Of a stretch of DNA of 40,341 nucleotides, positions 1,531-28,605 are shown in pieces. Made by a program: the position numbers and the translations under genes. Positions within the stretch are counted from its first letter, which is position 1. Each line of letters begins with the position of its first letter. A model generated the notes under the pieces. The model saw nothing but the letters and a program-made list of their open reading frames with translations. It did no database searches and was not told the origin of the DNA. This DNA is from a virus (Duplodnaviria; Heunggongvirae; Uroviricota; Caudoviricetes), in the IMG/VR virus record IMGVR_UViG_2619619135_000001, positions 1 through 40,341 of that record. The stretch is one strand, 5' to 3'.

Positions 1531-1696
1531 TTACATGTTTTCGATGATCGCTTCACCAAACTCTGAACATTTCAGCAGCTTAGCGCCTTCCATCAGACGT
1601 TCGAAGTCATAAGTTACGGTCTTGGCATTGATTGCGCCTTCCATACCTTTAACAATCAGGTCAGCCGCTTCAGTCCAACCCATATGGCGCAGCATT
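1531..1696 (-). pseudogene. icdC: icdC: displaced 3' fragment of the isocitrate dehydrogenase gene (prophage attR junction)
   Basis: Seen: minus-strand translation [54 protein letters not shown]-stop, which matches the Icd C-terminus as I recall it. An in-frame stop lies two codons upstream, so no 5' icd sequence is present. Known: e14 and phage 21 integrate in icd. Confidence 0.85.
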
Positions 1697-1928: not shown

Positions 1929-2762
1929 TTATTTCTGTAATCGGTTTATATTAACGTAAAGCATCTCGATTAGTTCTTTTGCATTTTTACTATAGTGCAA
2001 TTCTCTATGGCAATTCGGACAAAGGGCAACACAGTTATCTGTTGTATCAGCACCACCTGAAGACAGGGGAATTACATGATGCACTTCCAAATATGGGTTT
2101 CCATCATTTAAATAAAACGGAGCATTTTTACCACAGTTTTCACATATACCTTTACTTTGCTGTAAAATCCAAGCTTTTACCATCGGGTCTCGGACATAAA
2201 CTTTTTGTAGTCTTTCTACCTCAACTGGTTTCCTGGAGCCCTCGGGTTGACTCAACGTTTTCTTAATTAATTTACTAACCCTCATATTCAGAAGCGATTC
2301 ATCATCTGTAGGCTGTGAAAGCTCTGATAGTTCTCCACGTATTATAGACGCCCAAAAACTGTCACTATAAATACCTGGAACATTTATCAATATTCGTTTC
2401 GTTCTATTGCCGGAAGGAATTTCCTTTCTCCCCGTACGACTAAAATAAGCCTGATAACCACACATCTTCAAGCGTATATCGCGGGGGCTATTACCAATCA
2501 AAGTAAAATATTCACCAGGATGGATTTTTCTTTCATCCAAAGAATGCATATGTTTTCTGACTGATGATGACGCCAGATATACTACGACTTGGGATACACC
2601 AGAATCAACCAACCGTTCAATGATATAATCAAGAGCGATATTGTAATCTTTGTTTCTGTCACCCGGCCCCCACGACTCAAGGATTAGACCATAAACACCA
2701 TCCTCTTCACCTATCGAACACTCAGCTTTCAGTTCAATTCCATTATTATCAAAAACATGCAT
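1929..2762 (-). CDS. mcrA: 5-methylcytosine-specific restriction endonuclease McrA (HNH nuclease), 277 aa
   Basis: 277-aa ORF with a C-terminal HNH motif (CENCG...HHVIPLSSGG...CPNCH). Sequence and position next to pinE match e14 McrA as I recall it. Confidence 0.9.
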   Translation of the reverse strand: MHVFDNNGIELKAECSIGEEDGVYGLILESWGPGDRNKDYNIALDYIIERLVDSGVSQVVVYLASSSVRKHMHSLDERKIHPGEYFTLIGNSPRDIRLKMCGYQAYFSRTGRKEIPSGNRTKRILINVPGIYSDSFWASIIRGELSELSQPTDDESLLNMRVSKLIKKTLSQPEGSRKPVEVERLQKVYVRDPMVKAWILQQSKGICENCGKNAPFYLNDGNPYLEVHHVIPLSSGGADTTDNCVALCPNCHRELHYSKNAKELIEMLYVNINRLQK

Positions 2763-2868: not shown

Positions 2869-3423
2869 TTATTTATCCCCTGCAGGAAACCTCTTATACA
2901 AAGTTGACACACCAACATCATAGATAATCGCCACCTTCTGGCGAGGAGCTCCTGATGCAATTAATCGTCCGGCCTGTTCCCATTGTTCTGGTGTAAGTTT
3001 GGGACGACGTCCACCAATTCGTCCCTGTGCGCGAGCAGCTTCCAGTCCAGCTTTTGTTCTTTCAACAATCAGTTCACGCTCCATTTCAGCCAGGGCACCC
3101 ATCACATGAAAGAAAAAGCGCCCCATTGGGGTACTGGTATCAATTGAATCCGTCAGACTACGAAAGTTGATGCCTCGTTCGCGCAACTCCTCCACCAGCA
3201 CGACAAGATGCCGCATACTACGCCCCAGCCGATCCAGCTTCCAGACAACCAGAGTGTCCCCTGCCGATAATGTCCTGAGCAGTTTTTTCAGTCCCGGCCT
3301 TTCGGACTTTGTACCGCTTACCTTGTCTTCAAAAATCAGCTCGCATCCTGCACAGTTCAGCGCATTACGTTGTAGATCTGTGTTCTGGTCATTTGTTGAT
3401 ACGCGTACATAGCCAATAAGCAT
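2869..3423 (-). CDS. pinE: Serine DNA invertase Pin (Hin/Gin/Cin family)
   Basis: Seen: MLIGYVRVSTNDQNTDLQ resolvase N-terminus with the catalytic serine, and a C-terminal HTH. Start moved to ATG at 3421-3423 rather than the upstream in-frame MASFLLL extension. Adjacent to the invertible segment. Confidence 0.9.
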   Translation of the reverse strand: MLIGYVRVSTNDQNTDLQRNALNCAGCELIFEDKVSGTKSERPGLKKLLRTLSAGDTLVVWKLDRLGRSMRHLVVLVEELRERGINFRSLTDSIDTSTPMGRFFFHVMGALAEMERELIVERTKAGLEAARAQGRIGGRRPKLTPEQWEQAGRLIASGAPRQKVAIIYDVGVSTLYKRFPAGDK

Positions 3424-3449: not shown

Positions 3450-3959
3450 ATGATGCCATTTGCTCGTTATTTCTGCATTTTCATAAACGTTGGTTTGGGA
3501 GAAACGATAAATAAAGCCTCCGGAGCTATGCAGAAATCGGCTAATGGAGCTGATATTTCTGATGTATCAGCCTTCCGAAATGCGCTCCAGTTAGGGACCG
3601 CCGCAACACGAGATGTTGGAGCAGATAATGCCTCGAAGTTACTGGATTTAGACAGCTTCAGGTCAATGATGTCAGGGAATGGCTACATCTACATTCCATG
3701 CATTGCGACGACAGGAAACCCGGTGAAACTTATGTTGCAGTGGGGAACGGTGGCAACACAAAAGGGAGCTGATGCTGGATATGCCTTACCATTTGCTTTT
3801 CCCTATGCAGGCTTATTTGCGACCGGAAACCGTGGAACATCTGGCTACAATGCCGCGATGAATGTGCGTATTGCCAGCAGAACGCATATCAGTATTCAGA
3901 ACTGGTCGCCATCCGGAGAGGGCACCGAAGATTGTTGTTTTATCGCGCTGGGGTATTAA
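3450..3959 (+). CDS. Silent alternative tail-fibre C-terminal cassette (promoterless Stf variable part)
   Basis: Seen: the ORF has no tail-fibre N-terminus; it encodes NVGLGE across the recombination site and would be fused in frame to the Stf constant region after inversion. Confidence 0.65.
   Translation: MMPFARYFCIFINVGLGETINKASGAMQKSANGADISDVSAFRNALQLGTAATRDVGADNASKLLDLDSFRSMMSGNGYIYIPCIATTGNPVKLMLQWGTVATQKGADAGYALPFAFPYAGLFATGNRGTSGYNAAMNVRIASRTHISIQNWSPSGEGTEDCCFIALGY
3478..3503. other. Pin recombination site, pin-proximal (gix/hix-like 26-mer)
   Basis: Seen: TTTTCATAAACGTTGGTTTGGGAGAA. Its reverse complement shares the first 14 nt (TTCTCCCAAACCAA) with the site at 5399-5424. Confidence 0.7.
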
Positions 3960-3961
3960 GA

Positions 3962-4378
3962 ATGAATAAATTTTATAAAGGCTCTTTCTATCCGGAAGCA
4001 CTAAAAGATGTATATATCAGCGCCGGTTCATGGCCTGAAAATGGCGCTGATGTTGATGATGAAACAATGGCAATTTACACAGGCGTAGCGCCAGAAGGCA
4101 AAACGCTGGGGGCTGAAAAAAATGGTAATCCTGCGTGGATTGATATCCCGCCACTCTCCGCTGAACAACAGATTATTCAGGCTGAACAGAAAAGAACGGT
4201 ATTGCGTTCTATGGCTGATAAGGAAATAGTCTGGAGACAGGATGCTTTTGATGCGGAAATCGCGACGGCAGAAGAAACCGCCGCGTTATCTGAATGGAAA
4301 AAATACCGGGTCTTGCTGATGCGCGTTGATACATCAAATCCCGTCTGGCCTACGCCTCCGGGGGAGCAGGCCAATTGA
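3962..4378 (+). CDS. Tail fibre assembly protein, alternative (silent-orientation) copy
   Basis: 138-aa ORF starting MNKFYKGSFYP immediately after the silent Stf cassette. Its C-terminal region parallels the opposite-strand Tfa (both end ...PDINWPAPPEA / ...VWPTPPGEQAN). Confidence 0.65.
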   Translation: MNKFYKGSFYPEALKDVYISAGSWPENGADVDDETMAIYTGVAPEGKTLGAEKNGNPAWIDIPPLSAEQQIIQAEQKRTVLRSMADKEIVWRQDAFDAEIATAEETAALSEWKKYRVLLMRVDTSNPVWPTPPGEQAN

Positions 4379-4952
4379 TATCCGGCGCGGTGCTGGTATC
4401 AGTTGCCGTCACCGCGTCAATGTAATCCAGCACAGCGTTAAGTCGGGTGTTTTCTGTCTGCGTCAGCTTCCGCCCGGTCTGCAATTTCAGTTGAATCAGA
4501 CTAATGGAAGCCATTGCAGTATCAATCAGTGACTGACGCTGTGCTTCTGCCGCGCCTACTGCGGCACTATGCTGTGTCTCAGTATCTGTCACCCATTTCT
4601 CACCATCCCATTTATCGTATGGCGTTAACGGTGCGAGAGTGGTTGTATTATCAGGGTAATCACCCGGTGCTGTGATTTCTTTTGATTCTCCTGTTTCGGT
4701 GCTAAAGACAATTTCACCGCGATGGTCTGGCGCATATTCCCATGAGTTAAAATCTGCAGAACGGCAGATTGCATAACCAGCTTTATGTGTAACTGGTGCA
4801 TCTAAACAAGAACATGCCGGTATACCGACGCCAACCGCAAGATATTCAGTTGATGTGGAAATATATTCCCGCGTTTCACCATCATAATTATAAATGGTAA
4901 TGTCTCCCGCTTTTATGGCAATGAGTTCGTTATTTAATACGGCTTTATTCAT
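4350..4952 (-). CDS. Tail fibre assembly protein Tfa (currently expressed orientation)
   Basis: 200-aa ORF directly downstream of stf on the same strand, starting [17 protein letters not shown], a typical Tfa N-terminus. Confidence 0.75.
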   Translation of the reverse strand: MNKAVLNNELIAIKAGDITIYNYDGETREYISTSTEYLAVGVGIPACSCLDAPVTHKAGYAICRSADFNSWEYAPDHRGEIVFSTETGESKEITAPGDYPDNTTTLAPLTPYDKWDGEKWVTDTETQHSAAVGAAEAQRQSLIDTAMASISLIQLKLQTGRKLTQTENTRLNAVLDYIDAVTATDTSTAPDINWPAPPEA

Positions 4953-5701
4953 CAGGCAGCCCTCACGATATAATTAAAGGCAATGTTACGAGGTCGGTTT
5001 TCGTTTGCAGTTGGAACAACTCTGGAAGCATCGAATGTTACTCGCTTTGCATAACCACCTTTAATTGAATCAGATGAAGCATCTCCGATGACGCTGGTTG
5101 TAAAAACGCCAGAATCAGAAGGGTAGGTATTAAACCTGACATCCACTAATGCACCAATTATATTTCGAATGGCATCTCCCTGTGACGAAAGCAAGCTACG
5201 GTTAGTATCTATTCCTCTTCCGTCATCCCAGCCACGAATGAACTCACCACGTAAATCAGGCAATTTATTTGTCGGGTAAGCCTTTGCCAGTTCCGGGTAT
5301 TCTTCAGCAGAAAAAGCCGCACCGTTGCATTTCAGCCAGCCTGTTGGCGGAGTGGCGGAAGGCCACGGAACAGGCACACCAACGGGTAATGCCGAACCTT
5401 CTCCCAAACCAAGGTTTTCGAGAGCCGTTTGCACAGTGCCATCCGATTTGATATCGCCAAACGGATTCTTGCGGCTTAACAGCAGCGCACGAAGTGCGGT
5501 AAGCAGCTGGTCATGCCGCCCTTTCTCCAGGCTGGCACCGGAGGCCTCCACCACGCTACAAAGTTCTTCCTGCAACATGTCAAAGTAGTCATCATCCAGA
5601 TCGGTGGCAGGTGTGCCGGTCTGGGGGTTACCACGGGTAAAACCGTTCTTACCCGCGCCGAACTTATCCTTCTGCGCGGTTTTCGTGTCTATACGATGCA
5701 T
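4952..5701 (-). CDS. Side tail fibre protein Stf (constant N-terminus plus currently fused variable C-terminus)
   Basis: Seen: GGAG SD 7 nt before the ATG; N-terminus [22 protein letters not shown] is typical of Mu/P2-type fibres; the recombination site lies inside the codons for LENLGLGEG. Confidence 0.8.
5399..5424. other. Pin recombination site, distal (inside stf)
   Basis: Seen: TTCTCCCAAACCAAGGTTTTCGAGAG, an imperfect palindrome around a central AA and the inverted partner of 3478-3503. Confidence 0.7.
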
Positions 5702-23726: not shown

Positions 23727-24629
23727 TCAAAATTTGAATATTACACTCTTACCATCTTCGCTTAATTGAAGACCATTACCTAATTTCAGATTCGCTTGTA
23801 ATGCAGACTGTCTAAATCCCTGAAGCCAAGATTCAAGGTTGAAATTATTAACTATATCGTCAATTAATGACGCCTTCCAAATTATTCCAAGCTGCAATGA
23901 CTCGGTATGCGTAACAAATTTTTTAGCATCATTTGAAACTTGCTCAAGATTCAGCTCACTGTTGAACATATTCATGCTGGCGTATATACCTAAGAAATGA
24001 TAAGCATTACCTGCATACATATTTCCATCTTTATCACCATACCCTCCTTTGGCCACTATCATGGCAGGAGATCCAGACATTCCAGGGAAAGCTGAGATAT
24101 CTAATACAATTGTTTTTTCACCATTGAAATCATATTCAGGCTCACTGGCGACACTTCCTGTTTTCCAAACAGGAAGCATATTTGCAGCATCATGAAAACC
24201 ATATGGATAGCCAATTAGTGTTACTCGTGCTGTCGGACCTTTATAAACACCCTCGTTCTTGACTCCACTGTTTAATGCTTCGAATTCGCAATCTTTAAGA
24301 TTATCTCCAAACAATGGAATTACTGCTATATCAGCATTTTTCTCACTTGCATGCTGAAGCCAAGTTGGTTTGCCGTTTTTAAAAAGAGGAATCTCAATGG
24401 TTTTGCTGCCACCTGATTTCACCCTAACTTTGAAGGAAATTGAGTCACCTAAAGGCGATTCTTTTGATTGTGGGCTATGTCCGGTGACAACATGATAATT
24501 TGTTACCAAGAATAAAAGTTGTTCTTCAATAGATTGATAAAAGAACCCTGTTCCCTGTGAAACTTGCACGCCATTCAAATTAAGACTAACCATTGTAGTC
24601 ACTAATGATAATGGATCTATATTTCCCAT
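23727..24629 (-). CDS. Trypsin-like (PA clan) serine protease, cytoplasmic, AT-rich moron
   Basis: Seen: catalytic-triad-like motifs TNYHVV (His), ADIAVIPL (Asp), GMSGSP (Ser); no signal peptide; AAGGAG SD 8 nt before the ATG. Confidence 0.7.
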   Translation of the reverse strand: MGNIDPLSLVTTMVSLNLNGVQVSQGTGFFYQSIEEQLLFLVTNYHVVTGHSPQSKESPLGDSISFKVRVKSGGSKTIEIPLFKNGKPTWLQHASEKNADIAVIPLFGDNLKDCEFEALNSGVKNEGVYKGPTARVTLIGYPYGFHDAANMLPVWKTGSVASEPEYDFNGEKTIVLDISAFPGMSGSPAMIVAKGGYGDKDGNMYAGNAYHFLGIYASMNMFNSELNLEQVSNDAKKFVTHTESLQLGIIWKASLIDDIVNNFNLESWLQGFRQSALQANLKLGNGLQLSEDGKSVIFKF

Positions 24630-26210: not shown

Positions 26211-27365
26211 TTGTCCCCAACAAAAACGAAAAAAATGCCAAACCTAAAAATCAACCACGTTATTGTTCACGAGCTATTAAAAGAGAAAGATAAAGATTTT
26301 GACCACTCGAAACGATACAACCTGCGTGATTCTGAACTTGATAAAACAAACGCTGTTGTAATTTCCCTTGTTGAAGGGGTCGTTGCTCTTTATGGCTCTA
26401 AAGGCAACTCAGCACATTACGGTGTATTCAAAAGCGCCCCAAAAGAACAAGGTCCAATCCCGGTATTATTTGATCAGTATCACCAAACAGCAACTTCTCA
26501 ATCTATTGACTTTATTAACTTAACAAAGAAAATAATGGAACAAATGTATCATTCAGCCAAATCTCAATCTTGGTCTTCTGGAGGATACATTGTTTTTACT
26601 GATTATATTTCAGCAGGCATCAGATATTTTCTTGTAGCTATGATAAAAAAAACGAATGGAGTAACAATTAGCGAAAAACTCGAGCCAGAAGAAATGATAC
26701 ATCTGGAGTTAAATAATATTAACCAAGCTGCAAAAATAAATTTTCACTTATACTATCAATATCACCAAGCTGATGATGTTCAAAAAACAGAATTAAGCTA
26801 CTTAAGCTTCATCAACAAAACTACGGGACAGTCTGCTGCTGCATATTTCATCGCAGCTCTTGGGTGTGATAAGGGGATCGCATCAGCTGGAGCAACCCGC
26901 AAACTTCCAAATGAGGTAAAAAAGTTTTTTAAAAAACACAAAGAATTACGCCCTCATGCAAATGCAGTAAGAAACGCAGTAATAAAATATTTAGAATCCC
27001 AGTTCGGAAACAATTGCTCTGCAAAGCTTACAGATATTGAATCTATTTCTGCAACTCACATGGCATTTTTAGATGATGATAAAAAAGCCCCCCTAGTAAG
27101 AGAGCTCATGCAATATTTAAACAGCGAGGAGGTTAGAGTTCCTTCGGAGTTCGTCATAAATAAAACATCTCTTGACAAATTAAGGAATGTTATTTTCAAA
27201 GCAGATCAATATAGTTTTAATTTCGACAAAGATTTGCTTGGCATAACTACTGATGCTACAATTTTCTATGACGCTGAGCATGGGAATCTTACATTTAACA
27301 GACTCCCTATAGAAGCACAAAAAAAAATAAAAGATGCCTTAAAAGAAATGAATTTGTTAAACTGA
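26211..27365 (+). CDS. NdpA/YejK (NA37)-family nucleoid-associated protein homologue, moron gene A
   Basis: Seen: AT-rich ORF on the opposite strand to the late genes; track start is TTG at 26211, alternative ATG at 26235. Motifs match NdpA as I recall it: INHVIVHELLK, GGYIVFTDYISAGIRYFLVAMIK, SYLSFINKTTGQSAAAYFIAALG. Confidence 0.65.
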   Translation: MSPTKTKKMPNLKINHVIVHELLKEKDKDFDHSKRYNLRDSELDKTNAVVISLVEGVVALYGSKGNSAHYGVFKSAPKEQGPIPVLFDQYHQTATSQSIDFINLTKKIMEQMYHSAKSQSWSSGGYIVFTDYISAGIRYFLVAMIKKTNGVTISEKLEPEEMIHLELNNINQAAKINFHLYYQYHQADDVQKTELSYLSFINKTTGQSAAAYFIAALGCDKGIASAGATRKLPNEVKKFFKKHKELRPHANAVRNAVIKYLESQFGNNCSAKLTDIESISATHMAFLDDDKKAPLVRELMQYLNSEEVRVPSEFVINKTSLDKLRNVIFKADQYSFNFDKDLLGITTDATIFYDAEHGNLTFNRLPIEAQKKIKDALKEMNLLN

Positions 27366-27384
27366 GTTATAAAAGAAAAATAAA

Positions 27385-28605
27385 ATGAATCAGTTGAAAA
27401 TTGTAGTAGATTTATTTAGAAAATCTAAAACACCCCATTTCGACGGTGTTAAGTTTTCGGCGTCAATAGATTATACAACAGATATTAAAATGCTGTTGAC
27501 TACTATGCTAGATGATAATTTCAACGAAGGTTCATTCGATGAAATTGAAATTGATGGTTGCGAGATTTACGATGGAAATGATCTGCCTAATTCAGGAACC
27601 ACTTTAACATATTCATTTAAAGTCGCACGTAGAAGTGCAGATAGATTTTATGCTTCAAAAAGAGAGTTTATAGAAATTAATACTCTTCGAAAAGGCGTAA
27701 TGCCTAAGAACTATTACATTGCAGAAAGTGATTTTTATTCTTATGATGCCCAAAAGCCTGACTATATAATGACAATTGAAAAAATTTGTCAATTAATTTC
27801 ATGTTTATCGAACATAGCTCATTTCCACGATACCAAAAGTGATAGAAACACCAGTTTCTATCGCCTTGTTTTTGTACTACATTCAGAATCGAAATCAACA
27901 ACAGCAGTAATTGAAACTAATTTAACAGAGGAGGTCCTTGATATTGAAGACCTAAATATCAATCTTATAGCCAATTTATCTAAATCCGATGCAAGCAAAG
28001 ATAATCACTATCTTGAAAAACTGAACACATTCAGAAATACACTGATTGAATATATTTCAAAGACAAATGGCTCATTTATCAATATAATAAAAAACTGGAA
28101 CGATATCAATGAGTTATATAGCAACAACCTTGCTGTATATATGTCTGCATTCTCTTTCCATAAAACAAGAAAAGAGATTGCAGATGCTGAAATTGATTAT
28201 GCAGACAAAATATCTAAAGTCGTATCTGAAATAGCCAACAAAGCTTTAGCCATCCCTGTATCACTAGTTGCTGCAATATCGATATTTCAAATGACAGGGG
28301 AATTAGTTTCTATAGTGGCATTTTTAGGGATCTTATTGACATCTATTATTACTTATCTAGTCGCAGTGTCTCAAAAACGTCAACTTGAACGCATAATTCA
28401 TGCAAAAGATACCTTATTCGATACTATGATGAACAGATTGAGTGAAGAGCAAAATGAACTCAAACTCAGATTACAAATAGCTCAAATAGAGTTAAACAAA
28501 AATGAAGTATTCTGCATAAGAGTATTGGACTTAATGCGCTGCTTATCATGGATGCCAACATGTGTTGGCATATTAGCTTTATTAATAAATGACGTGCTAA
28601 TTTAA
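27385..28605 (+). CDS. Membrane-anchored protein of unknown function, moron gene B
   Basis: Seen: 19 nt after gene A; about 280-aa soluble N-domain then hydrophobic stretches (AIPVSLVAAISIFQ...VSIVAFLGILLTSIITYLVAV and C-terminal CVGILALLINDVLI); its stop overlaps the Q stop convergently. Confidence 0.65.
   Translation: MNQLKIVVDLFRKSKTPHFDGVKFSASIDYTTDIKMLLTTMLDDNFNEGSFDEIEIDGCEIYDGNDLPNSGTTLTYSFKVARRSADRFYASKREFIEINTLRKGVMPKNYYIAESDFYSYDAQKPDYIMTIEKICQLISCLSNIAHFHDTKSDRNTSFYRLVFVLHSESKSTTAVIETNLTEEVLDIEDLNINLIANLSKSDASKDNHYLEKLNTFRNTLIEYISKTNGSFINIIKNWNDINELYSNNLAVYMSAFSFHKTRKEIADAEIDYADKISKVVSEIANKALAIPVSLVAAISIFQMTGELVSIVAFLGILLTSIITYLVAVSQKRQLERIIHAKDTLFDTMMNRLSEEQNELKLRLQIAQIELNKNEVFCIRVLDLMRCLSWMPTCVGILALLINDVLI

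Follow-up and report, generated by a model that had tools for sequence, protein, structure and literature searches.

A probable Pin/pix inversion switch for tail-fibre tips in an e14-type prophage of Escherichia coli

Introduction

In a 40,341-bp stretch of caudoviricete DNA (positions 1 to 40,341 of IMG/VR record IMGVR_UViG_2619619135_000001, referred to here in its entirety as the window), two convergent tail-fibre cassettes lie between a serine recombinase gene, pin, and the constant part of the tail-fibre gene stf, and are bracketed by a pair of inverted 26-bp sites. This arrangement raises the question of whether the segment is a working inversion switch and, if it is, which function the switch serves. 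With high confidence, we assign the locus to a Pin/pix site-specific inversion switch belonging to an e14-type prophage at icd. We read it as the e14 Pin/P-segment system itself, since it has the same chromosomal locus, the same sites, a recombinase that is 97% identical and an identical Stf constant region. That system (pinE, stfP/tfaP, tfaE/stfE) was described in E. coli K-12 by Plasterk and van de Putte in 1985, as cited in PMC4272514.

Results

The site closest to pin reads TTTTCATAAACGTTGGTTTGGGAGAA and the distal site, inside stf, reads TTCTCCCAAACCAAGGTTTTCGAGAG, both on the plus strand. Superimposed as inverted copies, the two are identical at 21 of 26 positions, with an exact 14-nt core in common, TTCTCCCAAACCAA, and an independent repeat search of the window recovered the same pair (19 nt, 95% complementary). 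A published table of Din-family sites (Table 3 of PMC3241671), from which the reference pix sequences were taken, lists pixL and pixR with letters identical to those of the distal and proximal sites, respectively, and both are also identical to the sites of the K-12 strain MG1655. The pix sites align along their full length with hix, gix and cix in the same table, and with gix and cix as extracted from the annotated records of phages Mu and P1. Both read TTCTCCCAAACC AA (G/C)GTTT..., with AA at the core, and 8 to 9 of 12 positions agree when half-site is compared with half-site. In the annotated P1 record the crossover is put at the two central bases of the site, which correspond in the window to positions 3490-3491 and 5411-5412.

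With up to two mismatches allowed, the window contains just two copies of the 14-nt core (0.35 expected), and the central palindrome AAACCWWGGTTT, with at most one mismatch, is found only at the two pix positions. As neither core nor palindrome is present elsewhere in the 40 kb, the system is a two-site one; a multi-site arrangement of the Min or shufflon type was rejected, given that both scans of the window returned no additional pix-like site.

The reading frames through the sites are those expected of a fibre switch. A minus-strand tail and baseplate operon, with Mu-like P, V, gp46, gp47/J and gp48 genes, leads directly into stf. In the stf frame the minus strand of the distal site encodes ALENLGLGE, and in the frame of the second cassette the plus strand of the proximal site encodes I-F-I-N-V-G-L-G-E-T. 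The codon phase at the joint is the same in the S proteins of Mu (FIQNLGLQE) and P1 (VIQYLGLRE). The outer halves of the sites differ, whereas the inner ones (3492-3503 and 5399-5410) mirror each other perfectly and each encode G-L-G-E; both the sites and the reading frame are therefore regenerated in either orientation. Accordingly, inverting 3491-5411 in silico yields an uninterrupted Stf of 252 aa, in which residues 1-101 are unchanged and are followed by a 151-aa gp53-like tip, with a 138-aa Tfa encoded downstream. The first-pass annotation of this DNA, made from its letters alone, had located the 26-bp inverted sites at 3478-3503 and 5399-5424, had placed the distal one in stf codons and read NVGLGE from the proximal one, and had predicted that inversion would swap about 150 aa of the Stf C-terminus together with the cognate Tfa. 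The coordinates proved exact to the base and the frames are as it described them; the two tips measure 148 and 151 aa.

A constant fibre N-terminus thus lies outside the segment, and two convergent, in-frame C-termini, each with its own Tfa, lie inside, which is the layout of the phage host-range cassettes Mu G, P1 C, e14 P and Shigella B. Residues 1-101 of Stf are 100% identical to those of K-12 StfP. The ORF (open reading frame) currently assembled, 4952..5701 on the minus strand, encodes a 249-aa protein that has a phage tail collar domain. The collar tip is the counterpart of the K-12 StfE cassette, with 75% identity across the whole of the flipped K-12 Stf and a divergent middle part of the tip. 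The Tfa that follows, whose ATG overlaps the stf stop codon, is 86.5% identical to K-12 TfaE, and its position downstream of stf at 4350..4952 bears out the earlier assignment of the present orientation to the one with the 200-aa Tfa. The parked cassette is of a different kind: its gp53-like tip is detectably similar to that of K-12 StfP in the first dozen or so variable residues only, and the 138-aa Tfa, which starts 3 nt past the stop codon of the cassette ORF, only weakly resembles K-12 TfaP. The 3' ends of the two tfa genes share 29 bp (4350-4378), precisely the overlap seen between tfaP and tfaE of K-12. At its C-terminus each Tfa protein carries a WP.(P)P motif, the two motifs being encoded by opposite strands of nearly the same DNA (4350-4378).

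The gene adjacent to the proximal site encodes a protein that is, judged from its sequence, an intact small serine invertase of the Hin/Gin/Cin family, whose members have about 185-195 aa, a catalytic domain at the N-terminus with the serine near position 10, and an HTH at the C-terminus. Its identity is 97.3% to K-12 PinE (five substitutions in 184 residues, relative to an active enzyme), 82.6% to the Cin of P1 and 78.3% to the Gin of Mu. The N-terminal MLIGYVRVSTNDQ with the catalytic serine is kept, as in Gin, Cin and PinE. The top matches among solved structures are those of Gin, 3uj3 and 4m6f (E 3e-94). A 196-aa ORF starting at 3459 was rejected as pin, being a mechanical extension of the 184-aa gene. 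The start codon of pin (3423) is separated by 54 bp from the proximal site, which ends at 3478; the spacer between gixR and gin in Mu is also 54 bp long (L003: gixR 4513-4538, gin start 4593), and that of K-12, which inverts, is near-identical in sequence to the spacer in the window.

Systems of the Din family have a cis-acting recombinational enhancer with two Fis sites, in most cases within the 5' part of the invertase gene. The annotated P1 record labels nt 19-90 of cin as 'enhancer of Cin-mediated C-segment inversion'. The same interval of pin is identical to cin at 57 of 72 positions (79%) and to gin at 55 of 72. The strict Fis pattern GNNYRNNWNNYRNNC has a single match in pin, at nt 71-85, which is common to pin, gin and cin; the partner site expected about 48 bp upstream in pin was not matched by that strict pattern.

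Loss of the switch is seen among relatives of the locus: pinE is frameshifted in E. coli G47-1 (L002, 4370-4925), and in the locus of E. coli EC7 (L005) one tfa is gone, as is the greater part of one cassette, so that only one fibre variant is left beside pin.

Evidence that the segment inverts comes from comparison of related genomes. The orientation found in the window, constant Stf followed by an E-type tip and TfaE, is the opposite of that in the MG1655 reference NC_000913.3. In strain ECSD228 a related prophage occupies dusA; it has the same four cassette genes as the window, about 96% identical, but turned the other way round. Collinearity between the window and ECSD228 stops at 3503 and resumes at 5399, while the interior, 3480-5417, aligns on the other strand, which puts the breakpoints within both sites (3480-3503 and 5399-5417). 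Furthermore, two assemblies of MG1655 itself, NC_000913.3 and NZ_CP032667.1, are 100% identical in the flanks, but one has the segment of about 1.84 kb (99.9% identical) inverted relative to the other.

We also counted junctions between cassettes and flanks in 5,426 complete E. coli genomes, among which all four junction types occur. The collar tip is joined to the stf constant part in 513 genomes and to the pin leader in 897, and the gp53-like allele is joined to the pin leader in 86 and to an e14-type stf constant part in only 4. No clean ratio of orientations follows from these counts, since the pin flank occurs in more prophage types than the e14-specific stf flank, and we therefore rejected a reading of 86 against 4 as an orientation bias, the flanks not being comparable.

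Published data agree with these observations. In clonal MG1655 cultures both orientations coexist, by sequencing and by PCR (PMC4272514). Quantitative PCR of wild-type K-12 found about 30% of the segment inverted, a fraction that was raised by production of PinE or PinQ, and the segment was locked in pinE mutants; P-segment inversions were present in 33% of 562 database genomes (PMC12529663).

The parked cassette is part of a complete ORF of 169 aa (3450..3959, plus strand), whose leader sits outside the invertible segment. The leader peptide, MMPFA(R/C)YF(C/F)IFINVGLGE, is the counterpart of the start of K-12 stfE and is conserved in all six related loci examined (L001, L002, L004, L006 and L007 among them). 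In K-12 the pin-proximal ORF is stfE, which after inversion becomes stfE2, a fusion of the leader with a gp53-like tip (PMC12529663); the present ORF has this StfE2-type architecture, but with another tip allele. An AGGA lies 0 to 3 nt from two ATGs of the ORF, a poor Shine-Dalgarno spacing. No convincing promoter was found upstream on the plus strand, the nearest candidate being a 9/12 match at 3242-3271, inside pin, and the ORF has no PADLOC match. In Mu, the S' cassette ORF (Mup52, L003 3568-4554) also passes the boundary of the G segment and has its start codon in the 54-bp spacer between gixR and gin.

The identity of the prophage follows from the genes at the start of the window, which are, in order, ycgX, iraM, a C-terminal fragment of icd, the McrA gene and the serine recombinase gene. 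This flank, ycgX-iraM-icdC-mcrA-pin, is 99.6% identical to E. coli K-12, where the same genes mark the right end of the cryptic prophage e14. With a duplicated 3' end of icd (icdC), and with mcrA and pinE at its right end, the prophage is of the e14 type and is inserted at icd in E. coli. The remainder of the window, 5700-40341, encodes TerL, portal, capsid, sheath, tape measure, a DNA-circularisation protein, Mu-like baseplate proteins and an integrase, and from this gene content the prophage looks like a complete myovirus of about 38 kb or more. The window stops at the start codon of a 214-aa ORF without a Pfam match (39697..40341), which lies beyond int. A comparison of icdC with the far end of the window, aimed at an attachment-site duplication, gave an 11-bp match only.

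This exact prophage is absent from the complete E. coli genomes, among which the best matches have 96-97% identity over 83-91% coverage. The phage collection likewise holds no record that covers at least 80% of the whole switch module; its matches to the module are mosaic pieces only, from P2-like, HK106-like and Klebsiella phages.

Table 1 Features of the inversion locus and its flank (positions in the window).
Feature	Coordinates	Strand	Description
icdC fragment	1531..1695	minus	54-codon icd C-terminal piece
McrA gene	1929..2762	minus	277 aa; PADLOC mREase_IV, E 6e-203
pin (pinE)	2869..3423	minus	184-aa serine DNA invertase; Pfam Resolvase E 1e-51, HTH_7 E 1.5e-13
Region homologous to recombinational (Fis-dependent) enhancer, putative	3334..3405	minus	pin nt 19-90
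Fixed leader of the pin-proximal ORF	3450..3489	plus	ATG + 13 codons, MMPFARYFCIFIN; 54-bp spacer and outer half-site
pixR, pin-proximal 26-bp site	3478..3503		reverse complement TTCTCCCAAACC AA CGTTTATGAAAA; central dinucleotide 3490-3491
Invertible P segment	3491..5411		1,921 bp between crossover centres; from site centres and ECSD228 breakpoints
Parked Stf C-terminal cassette	3492..3959	plus	151-aa tip; Pfam Gp53-like_C E 1.7e-8
Parked Tfa chaperone	3962..4378	plus	138 aa; Pfam Caudo_TAP E 1e-30
Current Tfa chaperone, TfaE orthologue	4350..4952	minus	200 aa; Pfam Caudo_TAP E 1e-32
Current Stf variable C-terminus	4952..5410	minus	148 aa; Pfam Collar E 1.8e-15, residues 108-155
pixL, distal 26-bp site inside stf	5399..5424		TTCTCCCAAACC AA GGTTTTCGAGAG; central dinucleotide 5411-5412
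stf constant N-terminal part	5413..5701	minus	residues 1 to ~97 and site-encoded LGLGE; last constant gene of the operon

Two other places in the prophage contain genes of possible accessory function. On the minus strand, a 300-aa ORF at 23727-24629, between the terminase/packaging side and the lysis genes, matches PDC-S45, a candidate defence family, in PADLOC (E 1e-44), and has weaker matches to LmuA and RT-protease as well. At 26211-28605, two plus-strand genes are inserted in a mostly minus-strand stretch of the prophage; they encode a 384-aa NA37 homologue (a YejK-like nucleoid-associated protein) followed by a 406-aa protein without Pfam or PADLOC match, and may be moron or defence-hotspot cargo.

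Discussion

The mechanism that we propose for this locus is that of the known Din-family switches. Pin dimers would bind the two inverted 26-bp pix sites, 1,921 bp apart, with the assistance of host Fis bound at an enhancer inside the 5' end of pin. Staggered cuts of 2 bp at the central AA/TT of both sites, followed by strand rotation and religation, would leave the segment inverted. The constant 101-aa Stf head would be transcribed with the minus-strand baseplate operon in either state, joined at present to the 148-aa collar tip, with the 200-aa TfaE-like chaperone next, and after a flip to the 151-aa gp53-like tip, with the 138-aa Tfa next. Virions of the two states would then carry different receptor-binding tips, as in Mu G(+) and G(-). 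Inversion by Hin, Gin and Cin requires host Fis (and HU) and supercoiled DNA, and we infer that Pin depends on Fis and an enhancer as well. A consequence for host range is suggested by the fibre design, and the presence of terminase, portal, capsid, sheath, tape measure and baseplate genes makes a role in the virion plausible.

The first-pass annotation had proposed this Gin/Pin/Cin host-range design and had named the points on which it could fail: the sites might not align with hix, gix and cix, and the two orientations might not both be found. The proposal held on both counts, the sites being equal to published pix and alignable with gix and cix, and both orientations being represented by ECSD228, by the two MG1655 assemblies and by the culture data from K-12 (PMC4272514, PMC12529663). 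The design is further borne out by the intact invertase, the fusion frame and the in silico flip. One word in that annotation needs correction. The second cassette was called silent; it is indeed parked in the present orientation, but it belongs to a complete ORF, and its K-12 equivalent, StfE2, was reported to be active in phage defence when produced.

Several observations weigh against the reading of the locus as a fully functional switch in an intact prophage. A consensus scan of the 54-bp spacer found no sigma-70-like promoter for pin. The enhancer at pin nt 19-90 is putative, as the homology falls within a strongly conserved coding region. When conservation of synonymous sites in pin codons 7-30 was compared with that in the remaining codons, the difference was not significant for the pin/gin pair (p 0.44) or the pin/cin pair (p 0.21) and was marginal for the gin/cin pair (p 0.047); the test did not separate enhancer constraint from coding constraint, and therefore the enhancer is assigned by homology only. 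Flipping in the window's own strain is deduced from the identity of its sites and recombinase to active copies. In addition, the far end of the prophage, with the far attachment site, probably lies outside the window.

It is scarcely conceivable that the sites are a chance inverted repeat without a role in recombination. Taken alone, two inverted 14-mers would not be improbable in 40 kb of DNA, and when two mismatches were allowed at least two matches to the core were found in 5 of 100 shuffled sequences; but the pair gains its weight from exactly bracketing two convergent stf-C/tfa cassettes, from the reading frame and from matching pixL and pixR at every base, and, with breakpoints falling inside the sites in other genomes, chance is already refuted. 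We also consider it very unlikely that the segment is a frozen relic, inherited but no longer inverting in the window's strain, for example through lack of pin expression. Such a relic would fit the spacer without a promoter-like site, the frameshifted pinE of some related loci, such as that of G47-1, and the degradation of many e14 copies, including that of K-12. Nevertheless, Pin is full length and close to active PinE, both sites are identical to active K-12 sites with a near-identical spacer next to them, and the paralogues PinQ and PinR can act in trans on e14 pix sites (PMC12529663).

A different question is whether the output under selection is the virion at all. The switch could serve the lysogen instead of, or besides, the virion, if the pin-proximal ORF, with its fixed leader and whichever tip happens to be parked there, were expressed in the cell and its product masked outer-membrane receptors and thereby blocked adsorption of other phages; the recombination mechanism would be unchanged, and only the selected output would differ. 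We hold this to be rather unlikely, although it has some evidence in its favour: the pin-proximal ORF is complete, with an ATG beyond the segment boundary and a leader shared by the related loci, the S' ORF of Mu likewise starts in the spacer between gix and gin, and Kirigo et al. (2025) reported that P-segment inversion creates StfE2, that its production lowers adsorption of T2, and that cells with the inverted segment are resistant to T2 (PMC12529663). However, the effect was published mainly for K-12 cells producing the protein from a plasmid, the tip in the window has no detectable similarity to that of K-12 StfP past its beginning, and the ORF has poor Shine-Dalgarno spacing, no good plus-strand promoter and no PADLOC match. 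Conservation of the leader, moreover, may reflect the pin promoter or 5' untranslated region and the outer half-site alone. The narrower proposal that this ORF and the downstream Tfa would be expressed in the lysogen as a receptor-masking superinfection-exclusion factor is a little less likely still. A Pin/pix switch that acts on the fibre tips of the virion is thus the reading that we prefer.

Compared with other systems, the switch in the window is nearest to Mu G in layout and nearest to P1 C in the sequences of sites and recombinase. In Mu, as in the window, a constant S is followed by Sv, U, U' and S'v within the invertible segment and then by the invertase on the strand of the fibre operon; the 54-bp spacer from site to invertase, the codon phase at the joint (NLGLQE in Mu, NLGLGE here) and the upstream gp46/gp47/gp48-type baseplate genes are further likenesses. 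Nevertheless, the G segment is larger, at about 3 kb, with an S protein of 504 aa, whereas the fibre in the window has only about 250 aa, and the tips of Mu are unrelated to those of the window at the DNA level. The core of gix is GA rather than the AA of pix, and the inverted repeats of Mu, which are 34 bp long, match perfectly over 26 bp, unlike the pix pair with its 21 of 26. The inner half-sites of P1 cix match pix at 10 of 12 positions, with AA at the core in both, but cin runs convergently to S and abuts cixL with its 3' end, unlike pin in the window, and the C segment measures 4.2 kb. The Min system of p15B has six sites and multiple overlapping segments, where the window has only two sites.

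The e14 element of K-12 shares with the window its chromosomal position, both 26-bp sites, Stf residues 1-101 and the 29-bp tfa overlap. It is, however, a 15-kb remnant with truncated jayE/beeE, as opposed to the complete-looking prophage described here. The P segment of the window, at 1,921 bp, is about 90 bp longer than the 1.83-1.84 kb of K-12, and its second cassette, the gp53-like tip with the 138-aa Tfa, is another allele than K-12 StfP/TfaP. The PinQ/StfE2 system of Kirigo et al. is of the same locus type, but it has another tip allele, and the window lacks the pinQ/Qin context.

The switch itself was already familiar in the 1980s and published tables list its sites, so that the locus is ordinary and would not surprise a specialist. 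Its value lies in a clean annotation of both Stf fusion states in a complete e14-type prophage, as the usual K-12 reference is a truncated remnant. Since a flip is not a mutation, assemblies of such strains differ at this locus for trivial reasons. The parked cassette is an ORF of the type claimed to inhibit adsorption, which makes strains with intact e14-type prophages natural test material, with another tip allele. If the lysogen function is true, a single inversion would toggle virion host range and phage resistance of the lysogen together, and would do so in an intact, possibly inducible e14-type prophage, not only in the K-12 remnant.

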